A DNA stretch of 32,602 nucleotides, from IMG/VR virus record IMGVR_UViG_2698536533_000006; one strand, given 5' to 3'. The position numbers and the translations under genes are program-made. The notes under the pieces were generated by a model. That model saw nothing but the letters and a program-made list of their open reading frames with translations. It made no database searches and was not told where the DNA came from. Shown here one piece after another: positions 521 to 21,331 of the stretch. Positions within the stretch are counted from its first letter, which is position 1. Each line of letters begins with the position of its first letter. This stretch comes from a virus (Duplodnaviria; Heunggongvirae; Uroviricota; Caudoviricetes).

Positions 521-680
521 TCATTTGATACCGACAAGGGGTTTAGTGAAAGGAGGTGAAATCACCTGTAAGATACTGAAATAAAACAGGTGATGGCTAG
601 ATGTGCGGATAAGGTCTATTTGATACCGATTGTGCAATAATTAGTCATTTATTATAAAATCGGCAACTCATTTGATACTG
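521..680. repeat. Three direct repeats of a 13-bp motif at the prophage left end; candidate transposase binding sites
   Basis: TCATTTGATACCG at 521-533, CTATTTGATACCG at 616-628, TCATTTGATACTG at 668-680, all in the same orientation within 170 bp of the junction. Confidence 0.5.
555..592. promoter_or_regulatory. Overlapping palindromes between end repeats 1 and 2; candidate protein-binding site
   Basis: GGTGAAATCACC perfect palindrome at 555-566 and CACCTGT(16 nt)ACAGGTG inverted repeat at 563-592. Confidence 0.3.
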
Positions 681-1595: not shown

Positions 1596-3683
1596 ATGTT
1601 TGCTTCAGTTAAAGAACTGGTTGGATTACCGGGGATGCCGGGAACGGAGCAAGGCGTTCGCTATTCAATCAGGAAGTATGCAACCAGCGAAACCAGCAGA
1701 CGCCGCAAGAAAGGCGCTAAAGGTTTTGAATACAGCATTGACTGTTTACCTGAAGTGACACAGCAGGCATTACGCGAACGTTATGCCCTGCAACTGATGA
1801 CGCAAAAAGCCGATGAATCACCGGCTCCGGTGGTGACAAAGGCCAGACGCTCGTCTGCCGTGGTTGATGCGGTGGAGGCATATCGCGGATCACCACAACT
1901 GATGGTCGAACGCCTCAATGCCCTGACTGAAAACCAGCGCCAGGTGGCAGACGCACGCATTGCGATCGTCAGTGAGGTGCTGAAATTCACGCAACAACCC
2001 GGTTTCAGCTGCGCTAAAGCTATCCGGTTCCTCGTTAACAGCCTGGCACGATCACAACTGGACGAGCGCATTGTGGCAATGGTTGAGACGGCGAACGCCA
2101 AAAAGGGAAACAGCCGCGCGTTGAGTGAAATCACGCTGAAACGCTGGATTGCGGCCTTTAACAAGGCACAGAACGCCGCTGAACGCCTGCTTTTACTGGC
2201 ACCGGGTAAACGCCAGGAAATAAAAGCCGAAGATATTAACTGGCTGCCCGAATTTCTGGCGCAGTATCGCCAGTCAAACGGCCGACCAATGACCGAGGCT
2301 TACGAGGATTTTGTTGCTGAATGGCAGCACCGGCACGCTGATGAGCCTTATATGCTCGATATCATGCCCTCTTATGACACCATTCGCCGCGCAATGAAGA
2401 AACTGCCGGAAGTGGTGAAACAAAAAGGCCGGGTAACTGGCAGTGAATACCGTCAGCTTGAGGGATTCACGCGCCGCGACTGGTCCAGAATGCCGGTGAA
2501 TTATGTCTGGATTGGTGACGGTCACGGCATGAAGCTGAAATGCGCGCACCCGGTTCACGGGCGGCCATTCGCACCGGAAGTGACCTTTGTTATCGACGGT
2601 GGCACGCGCTTTGTGGTGGGCTGGAGCCTTGACCTGGCTGAAAATGTTTTCGCCGTAGCCGGTGCCATACAGCACGGTATTCGCCATCATGGCAAACCGT
2701 TTCTGTATTACTCGGATAATGGCTCCGGGGAAACCGCCGACGTCCTGGATAAGGAGATTGTGGGGATACTGCCACGACTGGGGATTAATCACCCGACAGG
2801 GATTGCCGGTAATCCGCAGGGACGGGGCATTATCGAACGGCTTAACCGCACATTACCGATGCGCATAGCCCGTAAATACCGCACCTATTTCGGGAAAGGA
2901 GCAGATCGCGAGACGTTACGTAAAACCAACCGCGATTTACGCTCGGCATTCAGTGCCCTGCAACAGGGCAAACGGCTGAACGCCCGGCAGCAGTCAGCGA
3001 TGCGTGATTTACCGTCCTGGTCTGAACTGATTGATGCCATTCGTGACGGTGTTGAGTGGTACAACAACCGGCCGCACGATGAATTACCCATGAAGCCGAA
3101 CGGTAAACATTACAGCCCGGCGGAGTTCAGAAAAAAACGCCTGGCGGAAGAGGACACGGAAATTGAATGGCTGTCCGATGTTGAACTGCGGGATATGTTC
3201 CGGCCGATGGTGGAGCGCCCTGTAAGACGCTGTGAAATACGCTGGCTGAATAATATTTACTACGCGCCCGAGCTGCGTGACGAGCATGGCCGTAAGGTAC
3301 TTATCAGCTATGACATTCATGATGCCGAACGAATTACCGTGCGCCGCCCGGATGGCAGCGTGATTTGCGAGGCGGTATGGGACGGCAATAAACGCGAAGC
3401 CTTCCCTGTCAGCGCGGAATACTACAAACAGCAGCAGCGCCTTAAAGGCATGCGTAAACGCGCAGAGGAAAAAATCCGTGATGCCGAGGATGAGGTTGTC
3501 AACGTGCTGGAGCACAAGCCGCAGGAGCCCTGGCTGGAAAACATATACCGCCCTGTGGGTAATACGGTGACCGTTCAGCAACCGGTCGCTGACGATGAAC
3601 CTGATGAAGAATACGAGCGTAATTTCCAGCGGGGATTGCAACTGCTCGAAGCGAAATTAAAAGAAAGTGATCCGCTGGCCTGA
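1596..3683 (+). CDS. MuA-like DDE transposase
   Basis: 695 aa; N-terminus (SVKELVGLPGMPGTEQGVRYSIRKYA...KGAKGFEYSIDCLPEVTQQAL) resembles the MuA DNA-binding domain; size and position after ner match Mu A. Confidence 0.9.
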   Translation: MFASVKELVGLPGMPGTEQGVRYSIRKYATSETSRRRKKGAKGFEYSIDCLPEVTQQALRERYALQLMTQKADESPAPVVTKARRSSAVVDAVEAYRGSPQLMVERLNALTENQRQVADARIAIVSEVLKFTQQPGFSCAKAIRFLVNSLARSQLDERIVAMVETANAKKGNSRALSEITLKRWIAAFNKAQNAAERLLLLAPGKRQEIKAEDINWLPEFLAQYRQSNGRPMTEAYEDFVAEWQHRHADEPYMLDIMPSYDTIRRAMKKLPEVVKQKGRVTGSEYRQLEGFTRRDWSRMPVNYVWIGDGHGMKLKCAHPVHGRPFAPEVTFVIDGGTRFVVGWSLDLAENVFAVAGAIQHGIRHHGKPFLYYSDNGSGETADVLDKEIVGILPRLGINHPTGIAGNPQGRGIIERLNRTLPMRIARKYRTYFGKGADRETLRKTNRDLRSAFSALQQGKRLNARQQSAMRDLPSWSELIDAIRDGVEWYNNRPHDELPMKPNGKHYSPAEFRKKRLAEEDTEIEWLSDVELRDMFRPMVERPVRRCEIRWLNNIYYAPELRDEHGRKVLISYDIHDAERITVRRPDGSVICEAVWDGNKREAFPVSAEYYKQQQRLKGMRKRAEEKIRDAEDEVVNVLEHKPQEPWLENIYRPVGNTVTVQQPVADDEPDEEYERNFQRGLQLLEAKLKESDPLA

Positions 3684-3988
3684 AATAAAAAAATAACCCG
3701 AGGGGTGACTCAGGTTATTTGAGGTTTCAGTCTCNNNNNNNNNNNNNNNNNNNNNNNNNNNNNNNNNNNNNNNNNNNNNNNNNNNNNNNNNNNNNNNNNN
3801 NNNNNNNNNNNNNNNNNNNNNNNNNNNNNNNNNNNNNNNNNNNNNNNNNNNNNNNNNNNNNNNNNNNNNNNNNNNNNNNNNNNNNNNNNNNNNNNNNNNN
3901 NNNNNNNNNNNNNNNNNNNNNNNNNNNNNNNNNNNNNNNNNNNNNNNNNNNNNNNNNNNNNNNNNNNNNNNNNNNNNNNNNNNNNNNN

Positions 3989-4705
3989 CAGTTTGTGGAA
4001 ACTCAGACAGTCCAGGAGCTGCGCGCACTGTTTCAGGCGGTTCGCCTGATGGGCTGTATTAACGTTATTGTGGGCGTACCGGGTGTGGGTAAAACGGCCA
4101 CTGCCCGTAATTACTGCCAGGAGCAACCAAACACCTGGATGATCACCCTGTCACCCGCGCACTCCAGCGTCACGGAGTGTCTGCTGGAGCTGGCCGATGC
4201 GCTGGGGATTGATTACACCCGCGCGAACAAAGGGGCATTATCCCGCGCCATCCGCCGTCGCCTGATGGGAACGCGTGGACTGGTGATTGTGGATGAGGCG
4301 GATCATCTTGGTATTGACGGTCTGGAGCAACTCCGGGCAATTCAGGACGCCACGGGGATCGGGATGGTGCTTATTGGTAACCCGCGCGGATTGTTTAAAG
4401 GTGGACGCCGCGCCTTTGATGATTTATCGCGCCTGTTCAGCCGTCTTGCCCGTACAAAACAACTTCGCAAGGCCAAAAAGGCGGATGTGCTGGCCATTGC
4501 CATGGCGTGGGGGATCAGTGGTGAGGCCGAGCTGGCCGTCATGCAGGCTATCGCTGAAAAGCCGGGAGCGTTACGCGTTCTGACACATACGCTTAACCAG
4601 GCGTGGCTCACCGCCAGCGGTGAAGGCGCGGCGCTGACAGAAAAACATATTAATGCGGCCTTTAAAGAGGTTTATACCAACCCTGAATTACTCTCACAGG
4701 TGTGA
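3989..4705 (+). CDS. MuB-like transposition ATPase, start hidden in N run 3735-3988
   Basis: Walker A motif GVPGVGKT and Walker B-like VIVDEADHL; directly downstream of the transposase. True start is somewhere between about 3720 and 3988. Confidence 0.85.
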   Translation, partial: QFVETQTVQELRALFQAVRLMGCINVIVGVPGVGKTATARNYCQEQPNTWMITLSPAHSSVTECLLELADALGIDYTRANKGALSRAIRRRLMGTRGLVIVDEADHLGIDGLEQLRAIQDATGIGMVLIGNPRGLFKGGRRAFDDLSRLFSRLARTKQLRKAKKADVLAIAMAWGISGEAELAVMQAIAEKPGALRVLTHTLNQAWLTASGEGAALTEKHINAAFKEVYTNPELLSQV

Positions 4706-6914: not shown

Positions 6915-7238
6915 NNNNNNNNNNNNNNNNNNNNNNNNNNNNNNNNNNNNNNNNNNNNNNNNNNNNNNNNNNNNNNNNNNNNNNNNNNNNNNNNNNNNNN
7001 NNNNNNNNNNNNNNNNNNNNNNNNNNNNNNNNNNNNNNNNNNNNNNNNNNNNNNNNNNNNNNNNNNNNNNNNNNNNNNNNNNNNNNNNNNNNNNNNNNNN
7101 NNNNNNNNNNNNNNNNNNNNNNNNNNNNNNNNNNNNNNNNNNNNNNNNNNNNNNNNNNNNNNNNNNNNNNNNNNNNNNNNNNNNNNNNNNNNNNNNNNNN
7201 NNNNNNNNNCTGCCGGGATATCTGCGGAGGTGGCGTAA

Positions 7239-12410: not shown

Positions 12411-12992
12411 ATGGATAAGCCAGCGCGTGGCCGTGTACGCAAGGTGGATTTGCTCCCCGACAGCATCCGTAAGCCGCTGCTGGAAATGCTGCGTGAAAAA
12501 CGTCTGACGCAGGTCCAGATCCGCGAGGAAATCAACCGTCTGATCCGTGAAGCAGGTCTGCCGGAAGAGCAGCAGCTCTCACCGGCGGCCATCAGCCGGG
12601 AAGCCTCCCGTAATGAGCTGATTGCCCGTAATCTGCGTGATTTACGCGAGCAGACAAAAGCCATGATGGCCGAACTGGGGGATAAGCCGACCGGTGAAAC
12701 CACGGCACTGATTCTGGAGATGTCCCGTGCCCTGATGTACCGCCGTCTGCGTGCCGCCACCGAATCCCTGAACAGCGACAGCGATGTGGATATGCGCCTT
12801 ATTAAGGACATCCTCCTGTCGGCACAGCGTGCAGAAAGTGCCGCCGAGCGCAGCATTAAGCGTGAAAAAGAAATCCGGGCCGCATTTGCTGAAGAGATGG
12901 CGAATGCGGTCACCGATGAGTTGCGCGGCGTGGATGGCATGAGCGAGCAGATCGAATTCCGTATCAGGCAGATGCTGCTGGGTAAGGCGTAG
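12411..12992 (+). CDS. Mu gp27-like protein, putative terminase small subunit
   Basis: 193 aa, immediately upstream of the large terminase gene; basic N-terminus. Assignment is by synteny and general resemblance. Confidence 0.55.
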   Translation: MDKPARGRVRKVDLLPDSIRKPLLEMLREKRLTQVQIREEINRLIREAGLPEEQQLSPAAISREASRNELIARNLRDLREQTKAMMAELGDKPTGETTALILEMSRALMYRRLRAATESLNSDSDVDMRLIKDILLSAQRAESAAERSIKREKEIRAAFAEEMANAVTDELRGVDGMSEQIEFRIRQMLLGKA

Positions 12993-16504: not shown

Positions 16505-17832
16505 TTTAGGTTATGCCGCCACGCTTCCCTCAAAAGAGACGGTGGCATACTTCCGCGCCAAAGGGGCGCATATCAGCTGGAACTGGTTCGAAACAGACGC
16601 GGATGTTCATGCCCGCTCATTCACGGCAGCAAAAACGGCACGGCTGGATGTGGTAACCACATTACAGGCCGAAGTGCAGCGGGCCATTGATGAGGGGATT
16701 TCACAGAAAGAATTTATCCGCACACTGACGCCACGCCTGCAAAAGCTGGGATGGTGGGGAAAGCAGATTGTGGTGGACAGCGACGGTAACGCGGAAGAAG
16801 TGCAGCAGGGCAGTCCCCGTCGTCTGGCGCTGATTTACAACGTGAACACCCGTGTGGCTTACAATGCCGGGCGTTACACGCAGATGATGAACAACACGGA
16901 CACGCATCCGTTCTGGCAGTATGTGGCGGTCATGGACAGCCGTACCCGCCNNNNNNNNNNNNNNNNNNNNNNNNNNNNNNNNNNNNNNNNNNNNNNNNNN
17001 NNNNNNNNNNNNNNNNNNNNNNNNNNNNNNNNNNNNNNNNNNNNNNNNNNNNNNNNNNNNNNNNNNNNNNNNNNNNNNNNNNNNNNNNNNNNNNNNNNNN
17101 NNNNNNNNNNNNNNNNNNNNNNNNNNNNNNNNNNNNNNNNNNNNNNNNNNNNNNNNNNNNNNNNNNNNNNNNNNNNNNNNNNNNNNNNNNNNNNNNNNNN
17201 NNNNNGGCGCCAGAACCATGACACCGGATGTGGGCTGGTCATATAACCCCGGCTCGGCAGCGTTCGGCACAGACCAGGCGCTGATCCGCAAACTGATCGA
17301 GGTGAAAAGCCCGGCGTTACGGGAAATGGTGGTTCAGGAGATGAACAACAGCCCGGAGCGGCAGCTGGCGTTCCGCATCTGGGCAAAAAACATCATGCAG
17401 ACCCGGCGAGGTGGTAACGATATCCGCACGCTGGGCTTTATGACTGAAAGCATTGCGCAGGCAGTGGAAAGCCGGACGGGAACGCCACCGGCCCGCCTGC
17501 TGGCGATGAGCGGTAAAAATGTGCTCCATGCGGACAGTGTGAAACATCAGAATGACGGCATCGCTCTGACGCCGGAGGACTTCGGGCGCTTACCGGCAAT
17601 GCTGGCAAGGCCAAAAGCGGTACTGTGGGACAAACGGCACAACAATCTGATGTATATCGTGGAAAATCAGGATGGCAGTGTGCAGATTGCCGTTAATGCA
17701 CCGTACAGTCTGAAACGTCAGCCCGACAAACTGGATGTGATTGTGAATGCTTACCGGGTTATCAATATGGATAAGCTGAAATCGGATATCCGGGGCGGAA
17801 TGCTTGAGGTGCTGGAAGGACAAATTGATTAA
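16488..17832 (+). CDS. Head morphogenesis protein (Mu F / gp30-like), interrupted by N run 16951-17205
   Basis: Open frames on both sides of the gap with combined size near Mu gp30. Frame continuity across the gap cannot be verified. Confidence 0.6.
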
Positions 17833-18604: not shown

Positions 18605-19738
18605 ATGAAGACAGAAAATCACCCAAAAGACGCAAATCGCCCCTCCGGTTTAGCCGTGCTTTCAGCTTCGCTGACTGCATCCGGCGACGGATGGTGTCAG
18701 TTACTGCCAGCCGGTCGGGTAAAGGCCCGTGACGGTCGCCCGGAAAAACCGACTGAAGGCTGGCTGATTAACGAATCCGCCTGTAACCGGATGAAAGCCG
18801 GGCTTTCCGCCCTGCATCAGCCGTTACTGATTGATTATGACCATCACTCCGTGAATGCGCAGAAAAACGGATTCAAGGCTATTGCTGCAGGATGGGTTAA
18901 GCCGGAAAACATCGAATGGCGTGAGGGTCAGGGGATTTTCATTAAACCTGAATGGACACCACAGGCACAAAAACATATTGATGACCGTGAATATGCCTAT
19001 CTGTCTGCATATATGCATTATTTCGCTGACACCGGGGAACCCTACCTGTTGCGCATGGCTTCCCTGACGAATGATCCGGGTATTACGGGTATGAACCCTG
19101 TCGCGGCACTCAGTGCTGATGATCTCTATGTCGTTTCCCCTTCTCAGGAGCAATCCCCCATGAATGAGCAATTACGCCAGTTGCTGACGGCGCTCGGTCT
19201 GACCGTGGCTGACGGTGACGAATTTACACCGGAACTGGGCACGGCGGCGCTGTCTGCCCTTACCGGGATCAAAACCCGTGCGGATGCGCACGACACCCTG
19301 AAAACGCAGGTTGCCAGCCTGTCGGCAGAACTGGAAACCGCAAAAGGCACACCAACTGGCGGCACTATTGATCTGACGAAATATGTGCCCGTTGAGACGT
19401 ATAACGCCCTGCGTACCGAATATGCCGCGCTGTCGGCACAACACGGCAGCACCACGCTGGAGCAGTTGCTGGATAAGGCCGAGTCCGAAGGACGCATTTT
19501 CAAAAGCGAACGCGGATACATGGAAGGACTCGGACAACAGATTGGCGTCGCGGCACTTTCTGCACAGCTTGACGCCCGCCAGCCGGTTGCGGCTCTGACC
19601 ACTCTTCAGACCGACACCGTAACCGTGCCGGATAAAAAGACCGCCACCGCTGTGCTGTCGGCTGAAGATATCGCCGCCGCACGTCTGTTGGGTAAAACCG
19701 AAGCCGAGTTCCTGAAAATGAAAGAGGAAATGCAATAA
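18605..19738 (+). CDS. Head maturation protease / scaffold protein (Mu I-like)
   Basis: 377 aa, immediately upstream of the major capsid gene; Ala/Leu-rich helical C-terminal half as expected for a scaffold domain. Confidence 0.75.
   Translation: MKTENHPKDANRPSGLAVLSASLTASGDGWCQLLPAGRVKARDGRPEKPTEGWLINESACNRMKAGLSALHQPLLIDYDHHSVNAQKNGFKAIAAGWVKPENIEWREGQGIFIKPEWTPQAQKHIDDREYAYLSAYMHYFADTGEPYLLRMASLTNDPGITGMNPVAALSADDLYVVSPSQEQSPMNEQLRQLLTALGLTVADGDEFTPELGTAALSALTGIKTRADAHDTLKTQVASLSAELETAKGTPTGGTIDLTKYVPVETYNALRTEYAALSAQHGSTTLEQLLDKAESEGRIFKSERGYMEGLGQQIGVAALSAQLDARQPVAALTTLQTDTVTVPDKKTATAVLSAEDIAAARLLGKTEAEFLKMKEEMQ
19160..19738 (+). CDS. Possible nested in-frame scaffold protein (Mu Z-like) from an internal start in gene I
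   Basis: Internal ATG at 19160, in frame, preceded by AGGAG at 9-nt spacing; would encode the C-terminal 192 aa. Confidence 0.4.
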   Translation: MNEQLRQLLTALGLTVADGDEFTPELGTAALSALTGIKTRADAHDTLKTQVASLSAELETAKGTPTGGTIDLTKYVPVETYNALRTEYAALSAQHGSTTLEQLLDKAESEGRIFKSERGYMEGLGQQIGVAALSAQLDARQPVAALTTLQTDTVTVPDKKTATAVLSAEDIAAARLLGKTEAEFLKMKEEMQ

Positions 19739-20685
19739 TGCCTACCCCGATTACACCGGCGATGATCACCGCCCTGATGACGGGCTACCGTTCTGATTTT
19801 CAGGCCGGGATGTCCATGGCTCCGTCGCAGTACCAGAAAATTGCGATGACCGTGCCGTCCACCTCGAAATCCAACACCTACGGCTGGCTGGGGCAGTTCC
19901 CGCAGTTCCGTGAGTGGATCGGCTCCCGCGTCATCGAGAAGATGAAAGCCTATGGCTACGCCATCGTGAACAAAACCTTTGAAGGCACCGTTGCCATTAG
20001 CCGCGATGACTTTGAAGACGACAATCTCGGCATCTACTCCCCGTTATTCCAGGAAATGGGTCGTGCCGCTGCGGCACAACCGGATGAACTGGTCTTTGCT
20101 GCACTGCGTGATGGTCTGAATGCGGCCTGCTATGACGGCCAGAACTTCTTTGATACCGAACACCCTGTTTACCCCAAAGTGGATGGCTCCGGTGATGCAC
20201 AGATGGTCAGCAATATGTTTGTGGCAAAAACCGGCTCTGTCGGTGCACAGGCGGATTACAGCGGCCCGGCCTGGTATCTGCTTGACTGCTCCCGCGCGGT
20301 AAAACCGCTGATTTATCAGGATCGCCGCAAAGCCGAACTGGTTGCCCAGACAAAAGTCGATGAAGGCCGTGCGTTTACTGATAACGAGTTTGTGTTCGGT
20401 GCTTCCGCCCGTCGCAATGTGGGCTACGGCTTCTGGCAGATGGCCTACATGATGCAGTCACCGCTGACGCTGGATGCGCTGTGGCACGGCTGGTCAGCCA
20501 TGCGTGACTTTAAGGCTGACGGTGGCCGCAAACTCGGCATCAAACCCACCCATATTGTTGTCCCCACCTCGCTGGAAAAACAGGCGGTGCAGCTGCTGGA
20601 GCGCGAGCTGTTCGCAGACGGTAACGCCACAGTCTCTAACGAGATGAAGGGCAAGCTGGAGCTGGTTGTCGCGGATTATCTGTAA
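19738..20685 (+). CDS. Major capsid protein (Mu T-like)
   Basis: 315 aa; ATG overlaps the gene I stop (TAATG); position and size match Mu T. Confidence 0.8.
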   Translation: MPTPITPAMITALMTGYRSDFQAGMSMAPSQYQKIAMTVPSTSKSNTYGWLGQFPQFREWIGSRVIEKMKAYGYAIVNKTFEGTVAISRDDFEDDNLGIYSPLFQEMGRAAAAQPDELVFAALRDGLNAACYDGQNFFDTEHPVYPKVDGSGDAQMVSNMFVAKTGSVGAQADYSGPAWYLLDCSRAVKPLIYQDRRKAELVAQTKVDEGRAFTDNEFVFGASARRNVGYGFWQMAYMMQSPLTLDALWHGWSAMRDFKADGGRKLGIKPTHIVVPTSLEKQAVQLLERELFADGNATVSNEMKGKLELVVADYL

Positions 20686-21058: not shown

Positions 21059-21331
21059 NNNNNNNNNNNNNNNNNNNNNNNNNNNNNNNNNNNNNNNNNN
21101 NNNNNNNNNNNNNNNNNNNNNNNNNNNNNNNNNNNNNNNNNNNNNNNNNNNNNNNNNNNNNNNNNNNNNNNNNNNNNNNNNNNNNNNNNNNNNNNNNNNN
21201 NNNNNNNNNNNNNNNNNNNNNNNNNNNNNNNNNNNNNNNNNNNNNNNNNNNNNNNNNNNNNNNNNNNNNNNNNNNNNNNNNNNNNNNNNNNNNNNNNNNN
21301 NNNNNNNNNNNNNNNNNNNNNNNNNNNNNNN

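Follow-up and report, generated by a model that had tools for sequence, protein, structure and literature searches.

The question raised by this locus is whether three 13-bp direct repeats near the left end of a 32,602-nt stretch of tailed-phage DNA (IMG/VR record IMGVR_UViG_2698536533_000006, hereafter the window) mark the end of a transposable element and, if so, what the sequences between them are for. The original prediction, made from the letters alone, had taken the repeats for transposase-binding sites at a Mu-type attL, within 170 bp of the junction, and had proposed that palindromes lying between the first two repeats bind a host factor or the repressor. Our analysis shows that a Mu-like transposable prophage of ~38.6 kb, which belongs to the E. 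coli Sp18 / 'Mu_JNE' type and interrupts orf2 of ISEc8, has its attL at window position 507, and that the three 13-mers are very likely the cores of three transposase-binding sites, which is overall the best explanation of the data. The left end is an ordinary example, not annotated before, of how Mu-type ends are built, and it belongs to a family of E. coli prophages that is known and widespread; some interest attaches to its 4-bp stagger, the TA termini, a shifted L1/R1 site and a spacer block linked to the terminase.

All three 13-mers, TCATTTGATACCG (521-533), CTATTTGATACCG (616-628) and TCATTTGATACTG (668-680), were found where predicted, on the + strand and in one orientation. With up to 2 mismatches allowed, the 13-mer has four matches in the window (0.81 expected), three of them in this one orientation within a 160-bp stretch. 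The 10-mer TTTGATACYG matches exactly four times in the window against an expectation of 0.09 (a count of 4 was reached in 0 of 100 shuffles), three times inside 160 bp at the left end, and the chance expectation for the 8-mer TTTGATAC is 0.0014 per 160 bp. Because the number of 13-mer matches at 3 mismatches equals chance (8 in the window, 7.9 expected), only the three good copies carry signal. The fourth exact 10-mer, TTTGATACCG at 20149-20158, lies inside the major head gene (19738-20685) and is kept as coding sequence in L003 and L004; it is probably coincidental (a single extra 10-mer is expected ~0.09 times). The idea that the 13-mers are not transposase sites at all, being chance repeats, iterons or the sites of another protein, could appeal to this chance-level count at 3 mismatches and to the TTGATAC-containing iteron-like arrays present in unrelated contigs. 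It can be given almost no credence, however, in view of three exact 10-mers in 160 bp (0.09 expected in the whole window), of inverted copies equally distant from the opposite terminus, and of a layout that is clade-wide and tied to the element boundaries, as detailed below.

The junction itself is defined by the following features.

1-506, + strand: ISEc8 (IS66-family) orf1/orf2 fragment, the interrupted target; 99% identical to ISEc8 copies, the match stopping at 506.
503-506, no strand: GACA, predicted left copy of a 4-bp target-site duplication, the right copy being outside the window.
507-516, + strand: prophage left terminus, TATAACCAGG; homology to prophage copies elsewhere begins at 507.

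The ISEc8 orf2 (196-519) is cut at 506 by the prophage, and intact ISEc8 reads GGCGACA/GCCTAAG at the interrupted point (the slash marks the break). A copy of the left-end region, 95-100% identical, is present at other chromosomal sites in 12 complete E. coli genomes, with homology mostly beginning at 507. Of the 11 complete prophages in which both junctions could be read, seven belong to the Sp18 type and three to the window type, and the last is a 95% variant. Ten of the 11, at different chromosomal sites, have matching target-duplication flanks around common termini, T[A/G]TAACCAGG... and ...CCGCGCTATA (T[A/G]TAACC...GCGCTATA across the ten insertions). The duplication is 4 bp long in 9 of the 10 (AACA, GTGA, AGAG, TACG, GACG, TAGA, GGCG, TTCG and TTCG) and 5 bp in the remaining one (CGTCT); four of the nine are unambiguous, since the fifth base rules out 5 bp, and five fit either 4 or 5 bp. 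Identical boundaries and a 4-bp duplication are annotated by the depositors of GenBank LC727895. A search of the literature for the 4-bp duplication of Sp18-type phages returned nothing relevant.

The end of the ISEc8 match, the insertions at multiple sites and the LC727895 annotation together place the junction at 506/507, 14 nt ahead of the first 13-mer. The predicted distance of 170 bp was therefore roughly right, the repeats spanning offsets 15-174, and the possibility that the true terminus maps elsewhere was not borne out, since ten insertions and the LC727895 annotation agree on window 507. The prediction of GACA as the duplicated target rests on the 4-bp length at 9 of 10 other insertions combined with the intact ISEc8 sequence. 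We also considered the left terminal T as part of a 5-bp duplication and rejected this assignment, as the fifth right-flank base differs in four insertions. One end pair, from E. coli strain 48 (L135/L136), has unrelated flanks (CTGG at one end and TTCG at the other), which suggests recombination between prophage copies; having non-matching flanks, it was left out of the duplication count. In strain JMF1 (NZ_CM139231.1) the two ends are only ~16 kb apart, suggestive of a deleted prophage.

The right end was read in L002, a complete 38,634-bp prophage of E. coli 600029 whose aligned blocks have 99.0-100% identity with the window, and in relatives. Read inward, the L002 right end is TATAGCGCGGCGATTTTTTTGATACCGATTTGCATTTCATTTGATACCGCTGAAAAACGCCGATACGCAACTTATTTGATACTAAATCGG. 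Inverted copies of the 13-mer were looked for there, and three were found, with TTTGATAC at offsets 18, 40 and 75; the core offsets of the window type are thus 18/113/165 at the left and 18/40/75 at the right. The core begins at offset 18 at both ends, R1 and R2 (the latter at 40) stand in a 22-bp register, and R3, in direct orientation, follows 35 bp inward of R2. The same three-plus-three layout recurs in Mu-like phages of other hosts, so that the proposed comparison with related phage ends came out in favor of the prediction: the core offsets are 18/88/130 (left) and 18/40/74 (right) in Klebsiella Kp4866-3, and 18/122/164 and 18/40/75 in Yersinia vB_YpM_5, and the left end of vB_YpM_Tongde, the only end read in that phage, is laid out alike. 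The more distant Kp4852-3 (transposase 42%) has TTTGCA-type repeats at the corresponding places.

In IMG/VR and the reference phages, right ends occur in approximately 30 distinct variants, which read T[A/G][T/A]AGCGCG... and carry the same three sites. Right ends of the clade are TATAGCGCG or TAAAGCGCG, plus two TGTAGCGCG variants; they are conserved for ~100 bp and then diverge. Left and right termini of the element (TATAACCAGG and TATAGCGCGG) are alike at 7 of 10 positions. Position 2 of the left terminus is polymorphic, being A in the window and G in Sp18-type relatives (TATA vs TGTA), so that the left end is TA in the window and TG in the Sp18 type. For the genome of the window itself, the predicted right end is ...CCGCGCTATA followed by GACAGCCTAAG of ISEc8. 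A single degenerate pattern spanning both ends gave 0 matches against genome contigs, and no extra species-level insertions were gained. In the pattern scans of viral contigs, coding repeats and iteron-like arrays were filtered by a nearby transposase match or by terminus context. Unrelated TTGATACAGATC repeat arrays beside TGTGGATAA-type boxes were seen in the IMG/VR loci L141, L144, L156, L161 and L163; they look like replication-origin iterons that matched the right-end pattern by chance.

An alignment of 24 sites has TTGATA invariant, the flanking T and C nearly invariant and weaker flanks (a-TTTGATAC-yg-a). By this comparison the 13-mers appear to be the information-rich cores, with the consensus a-TTTGATAC-YG-a, of three ~22-bp sites at the left end.

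517-538, + strand: L1, approximate 22-bp transposase site TGAATCATTTGATACCGACAAG, whose core is the 13-mer at 521-533.
612-633, + strand: L2, approximate 22-bp site with the core CTATTTGATACCG at 616-628, the core being invariant in 15 variants.
659-685, + strand: L3, with the core TCATTTGATACTG at 668-680 and a conserved 5' flank (CGGC at 661-664).

The L1 core stands 17 nt from the terminus, a distance that is equal at the right end, in Kp4866-3 and in vB_YpM_5; the L2 core lies 95 nt past the L1 core, and L3 closely resembles R3 (ATACGCAACTTATTTGATACT). The 15 variants come from a pattern scan of IMG/VR combined with E. coli loci, which gave 30 left ends of the window type, with 15 distinct variants among them. 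Their conservation (invariant columns, then mean pairwise identity) is distributed as follows.

507-533, terminus and L1: 22 of 27 columns; 0.94.
542-594, palindrome block: 50 of 53 columns; 0.985.
595-618 (offsets 89-112), before L2: 3 of 24 columns; 0.55.
619-630, L2 core: 9 of 12 columns; 0.92.
631-659, L2-L3 spacer: 6 of 29 columns; 0.63.
660-681, L3: 14 of 22 columns; 0.87.
682-761, beyond L3: 9 of 80 columns; 0.52.

The 13-mers coincide exactly with conserved islands, between which the DNA is hypervariable, and conservation collapses directly past position 681, after L3. Judging from this pattern, the hypervariable stretch ahead of L2 (595-611) appears to be a true spacer free of sequence constraint.

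The presumed ligand of the three sites, and the protein that would assist it, are encoded nearby.

1596-3683, + strand: MuA-family DDE transposase of 695 aa (Pfam Mu-transpos_C and HTH_Tnp_Mu_1), presumed ligand of L1-L3.
3719-4705, + strand: MuB-like AAA+ target-capture ATPase (Pfam Phage-MuB_C and AAA_22).

The transposase is collinear with MuA over its full length at 23% identity (BLASTP, E = 1e-13). The N-terminal part has its match in MuA I-alpha (structure 1tns) and the core in retroviral integrases; the motifs GDG, SDNG and IIERLN (at residues 307, 373 and 414), together with the integrase-core matches, fit a DDE triad. In the proposed mechanism, monomers of this transposase would bind L1, L2 and L3, and the three inverted right-end sites would be occupied likewise, with R1 and R2 abutting in the 22-bp register and R3 lying another 35 bp inward. 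Once bound, the subunits would pair the two ends with help from the enhancer/operator region and the MuB-like ATPase. Nicks would fall at the 3'-TA (or CA) termini, 17 nt beyond the cores of L1 and R1, and the ends would then be joined to target DNA with a stagger of usually 4 bp.

Several observations weigh against this assignment. The window stops within tail genes, and its own right end is outside it. The end-binding I-beta/I-gamma domain was not detected in the transposase: Pfam gave no HTH_Tnp_Mu_2 match even at E <= 1, and a phmmer search of the PDB matched I-alpha and the core only, not I-beta/I-gamma. That region is covered solely by the low-identity collinear alignment to MuA, and a single-sequence AlphaFold2 model of residues 1-300 was unusable (predicted local distance difference test score, pLDDT, of 41). 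Finally, each site is one contiguous conserved block and not a pair of half-sites as in Mu. On the other side stand the right-end copies, the mapped terminus, the layout common to the clade, the conservation islands and the adjoining MuA and MuB homologues, all of which support the reading of the repeats as transposase sites at a Mu-type attL. That the transposase physically binds them is, on this comparative evidence, highly probable.

In Mu, each end has three MuA sites, which are bound through the I-beta-gamma domains (PMC3562280, PMC3145075). According to the Mu record L1, L2 and L3 are at ~6-27, 112-133 and 151-172, R1 and R2 are at 6-27 and 28-49, and R3 is inverted. The window clade is like Mu in having three sites per end, L1 and R1 equidistant from the termini, R1 and R2 in a 22-bp register, and a long L1-L2 spacer followed by L2 and L3, with homologues of MuA, MuB and Ner adjoining. 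The site cores are related as well (Mu TCACTTGAAGTACGAA, window TCATTTGA--TACCGA; common CAYTTGA..TAC.GA). On the other hand, similarity to the 22-bp Mu sites is only partial: when window L1 is aligned to Mu L1 (TGATTCACTTGAAGTACGAAAA) without gaps, 12 of 22 positions agree by our own count. The L1/R1 core is 5 bp further from the terminus in the window than in Mu; R3 is direct in the window clade and inverted in Mu; duplications are mostly 4 bp, compared with 5 bp for Mu (PMC3145075, PMC3562280); and the 3' ends of the window are TA in place of the CA conserved in Mu and retroviruses (PMC3562280), which Sp18-type left ends keep. The sequence of the spacer differs too, and the repressor is XRE/HTH_3-like (helix-turn-helix, HTH) and not of the Mu c type.

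Among the relatives, the Sp18-type prophage (Mu_JNE122137, LC727895/LC727881) is close to the window in its transposase (94% identical) and small terminase (97%), and it shares L1-L3, R1-R3, the spacer block and the right terminus, with the 4-bp duplication annotated by its depositors. It differs in the repressor (42%), in Ner (43%) and in the left terminus (TGTA, not TATA), and the DNA diverges past offset ~175. Of 5426 complete E. coli genomes, 232 have a match to its right end. The phages vB_YpM_5, Tongde and Kp4866-3 (transposase 82%, 56% and 57% identical to that of the window, respectively) all have TTTGATAC sites and a distance of 17 nt between L1 and the left terminus; they differ in the L1-L2 and L2-L3 distances. 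The small terminase of the two Yersinia phages is Mu-identical and that of Kp4866-3 carries the KLSR[ST]GLNRYA motif of Mu.

These results locate precisely the left boundary of a Mu-like prophage family, together with its cis-acting end sites; the listed host strains of the family include O157 and other Shiga toxin-producing E. coli (STEC), and its targets of insertion are genes, insertion sequences and other prophages. With the consensus and arrangement of the sites, such prophages could be recognized and their limits drawn, and mini-elements could be constructed. The departures from Mu, together with the spacer block discussed next, provide testable handles on transpososome geometry and on the evolution of packaging specificity. 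The general picture of how Mu-like phages work is unchanged.

The second part of the question concerns the palindromes between L1 and L2.

542-594 (offsets 36-88), no strand: conserved 53-bp block in the L1-L2 spacer, proposed packaging (pac) site, i.e. the site of the small terminase.
12411-12992, + strand: small terminase of the Mu Gp27 family (Pfam Phage_Mu_Gp27, E = 3e-33), proposed reader of 542-594.

The sequence GGTGAAATCACC (555-566) had been described as a perfect palindrome, which was an error, its reverse complement being GGTGATTTCACC; the actual symmetry near 555 is a 6-bp inverted repeat, AGGTGA (554-559) and TCACCT (562-567), around a central AA. The inverted repeat CACCTGT (563-569) / ACAGGTG (586-592), in contrast, is as described and in fact extends to a perfect 9 bp, ATCACCTGT (561-569) and ACAGGTGAT (586-594), with a 16-nt loop. 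Such a repeat is unremarkable alone, because the window holds eight 9-bp inverted repeats of this kind compared with ~3 in shuffles; its significance comes from conservation, which in the 15 variants ends exactly at the last base of the second arm. The block is a feature of the left end only and is absent from right ends.

Packaging of Mu starts at the attL end (PMC2837660). We infer, on comparative grounds, that 542-594 may be the pac signal of the Gp27-family small terminase, a proposal whose chances we judge to be even. If so, the enzyme (12411-12992) would start headful packaging from the left end at this block. The proposal derives from the fact that the block changes together with the small terminase. 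Residues 55-65 of this protein are QLSPAAISREA in the window and KLSR[ST]GLNRYA in Mu-type proteins. The palindrome block goes with QLSPAAISREA, in phages of the window type and of the Sp18 type, and the five phages with KLSR[ST]GLNRYA (Mu, vB_YpM_5, Tongde, Kp4866-3 and the IMG/VR locus L076) have in its place a spacer with CCGGGA..GGAT..CGGGAT. Four of these five share the TTTGATAC end sites of the window, Mu using its own. In an alignment of the window with the following three spacers, the motif is common to the three phages with a Mu-type terminase and is not shared by the window.

Mu spacer: ACCGGGAGGACATTGGATTATTCGGGATCTGATGGGAT
vB_YpM_5 spacer: TCCGGGAGGAAAGTGGATCAAACGGGATTTGATGGGAT
Kp4866-3 spacer: ACCGGGAAGAGATTGGATCAAGCGGGAAC

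The case of vB_YpM_5 combines a small terminase one residue off that of Mu and a Mu-like spacer with ends and a transposase that are nevertheless window-like. Pac of Mu is reportedly (Groenen and van de Putte, 1985) located at ~nt 32-58 from the left end, in the L1-L2 spacer, although the literature searched did not yield this location. With the Mu location so placed, both elements are confined to the left end, in the L1-L2 spacer and beside the start of headful packaging; the window element consists of AGGTGA inverted repeats and has no clear likeness to the Mu spacer motif. More specifically, the block could be a pac signal of new specificity, pac and terminase having been exchanged as a unit independently of the transposase, in an element whose transpososome geometry is also un-Mu-like; we put this combined view forward tentatively, at somewhat less than an even chance. 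As an observation in its own right, vB_YpM_5 (L020) and vB_YpM_Tongde (L190) are natural chimeras, in which a Mu-identical small terminase and a Mu-like spacer accompany TTTGATAC sites and a transposase of the window type (82% and 56%). In the circular assembly of the vB_YpM_5 record, ~66 bp of foreign DNA separates the right end from the left.

Two considerations count against a packaging role. The co-variation rests on essentially two terminase clades, so it is suggestive, and phylogenetic linkage could mimic it. In addition, the block co-occurs with a closely similar transposase (92-99% in IMG/VR loci with the whole gene), which would also suit a role of the block as an accessory to the transposase.

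The original prediction had suggested a host factor or the repressor as the ligand of the palindromes. That the block is functional stood up to the analysis, and the repressor part of the suggestion did not. Dyad symmetry is typical of HTH repressor sites, and the repressor gene is ~160 bp away, so the palindromes might be repressor or Ner operators that shut down end usage in the lysogen. However, the block is identical in Sp18-type phages despite the divergence of their repressor and Ner noted above, and, more broadly, it is invariant across lineages with repressors 42-53% and Ner proteins 43-55% identical. Furthermore, the operator region of the otherwise identical prophage L002 has palindromes of its own (ATTGATCCAC/GTGGATCAAT and AAACTTGATAACTAA/TTAGTTATCAAATTT) and no AGGTGA motif, so that no operator motif is shared. 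We therefore consider an operator function very improbable.

A host architectural protein fares somewhat better. HU binds the L1-L2 spacer of Mu (PMC3145075) and the block sits in the equivalent spacer, where a site for HU, IHF or Fis could bend the DNA so that the L1 and L2 subunits meet. Binding of HU is not sequence-specific, though, and would not explain 50 invariant columns out of 53; no match to the IHF consensus WATCAANNNNTTR (<=1 mismatch) exists in 542-594, the sole one in 507-700 overlapping L1; and the spacer sequence is quite different in phages that share the end sites and have a related transposase. An architectural site as the explanation of the block is thus unlikely, even if bending of the HU type could possibly coexist with a pac role.

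A further alternative gives the 9-bp inverted repeat the role of a hairpin, in RNA or DNA, that would terminate or insulate leftward repressor transcription or block read-in from the host. Folding energies lend it some appeal (minus-strand RNA -11.5 kcal/mol, z = -3.85; plus strand -14.1 kcal/mol, z = -2.5). Against this, the loop is 16 nt long with no U-run after the hairpin, a promoter/terminator scan finds nothing at 540-600, and the only arm substitution seen in nature (T569 to C, in L064) has no compensating change. Nor does the block match any Rfam family (an Rfam search of 400-1329 gave only a meaningless lncRNA match, E = 0.66), and conservation also spans ~20 nt upstream of the hairpin. 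A hairpin function accordingly seems quite improbable, and assignment of the block as a candidate pac site is preferred.

The remaining features of the region concern the regulatory genes between the left end and the transposase.

753-1298, - strand: repressor-like gene of 181 aa (Pfam HTH_3 (XRE), E = 2e-4, just below the cut-off), transcribed towards the left end.
1330-1457, no strand: 128 consecutive N, which hide the operator/enhancer region and the first part of the ner-like gene.

The repressor gene is annotated as 'transcriptional regulator' in identical prophages, and its product is weakly XRE/HTH_3-like. A Ner-like HTH_35 protein is encoded ahead of the transposase. Where the window has the N run, L002 has 250 bp (1839-2088), which hold the operator/enhancer region between repressor and ner, with its palindromes, and the beginning of the ner-like gene. 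The N-terminus of the transposase resembles both MuA I-alpha and the DNA-binding domain of the Mu c repressor (PDB 1tns, 1g4d); the scheme of Mu, in which repressor and transposase share one DNA-binding fold on the operator/enhancer, may not be applicable here. No tRNA was found by ARAGORN over the window.

A hairpin, GCGGG-N13-CCCGC at 739-766, flanked by A- and T-runs, overlaps the stop codon of the repressor gene. Its stem is kept in Sp18-type phages while the loop differs, and the terminator scan did not flag it since the loop exceeds 8 nt; it looks like the real terminator of the leftward repressor transcript. Finally, four stretches of the window (3735-3988, 6915-7209, 16951-17205 and 21059-21331) are unaligned to the otherwise 99-100% identical L002, and two of them coincide with open reading frame differences from the head-morphogenesis gene and the HI1506-related/gp436 genes of that prophage.

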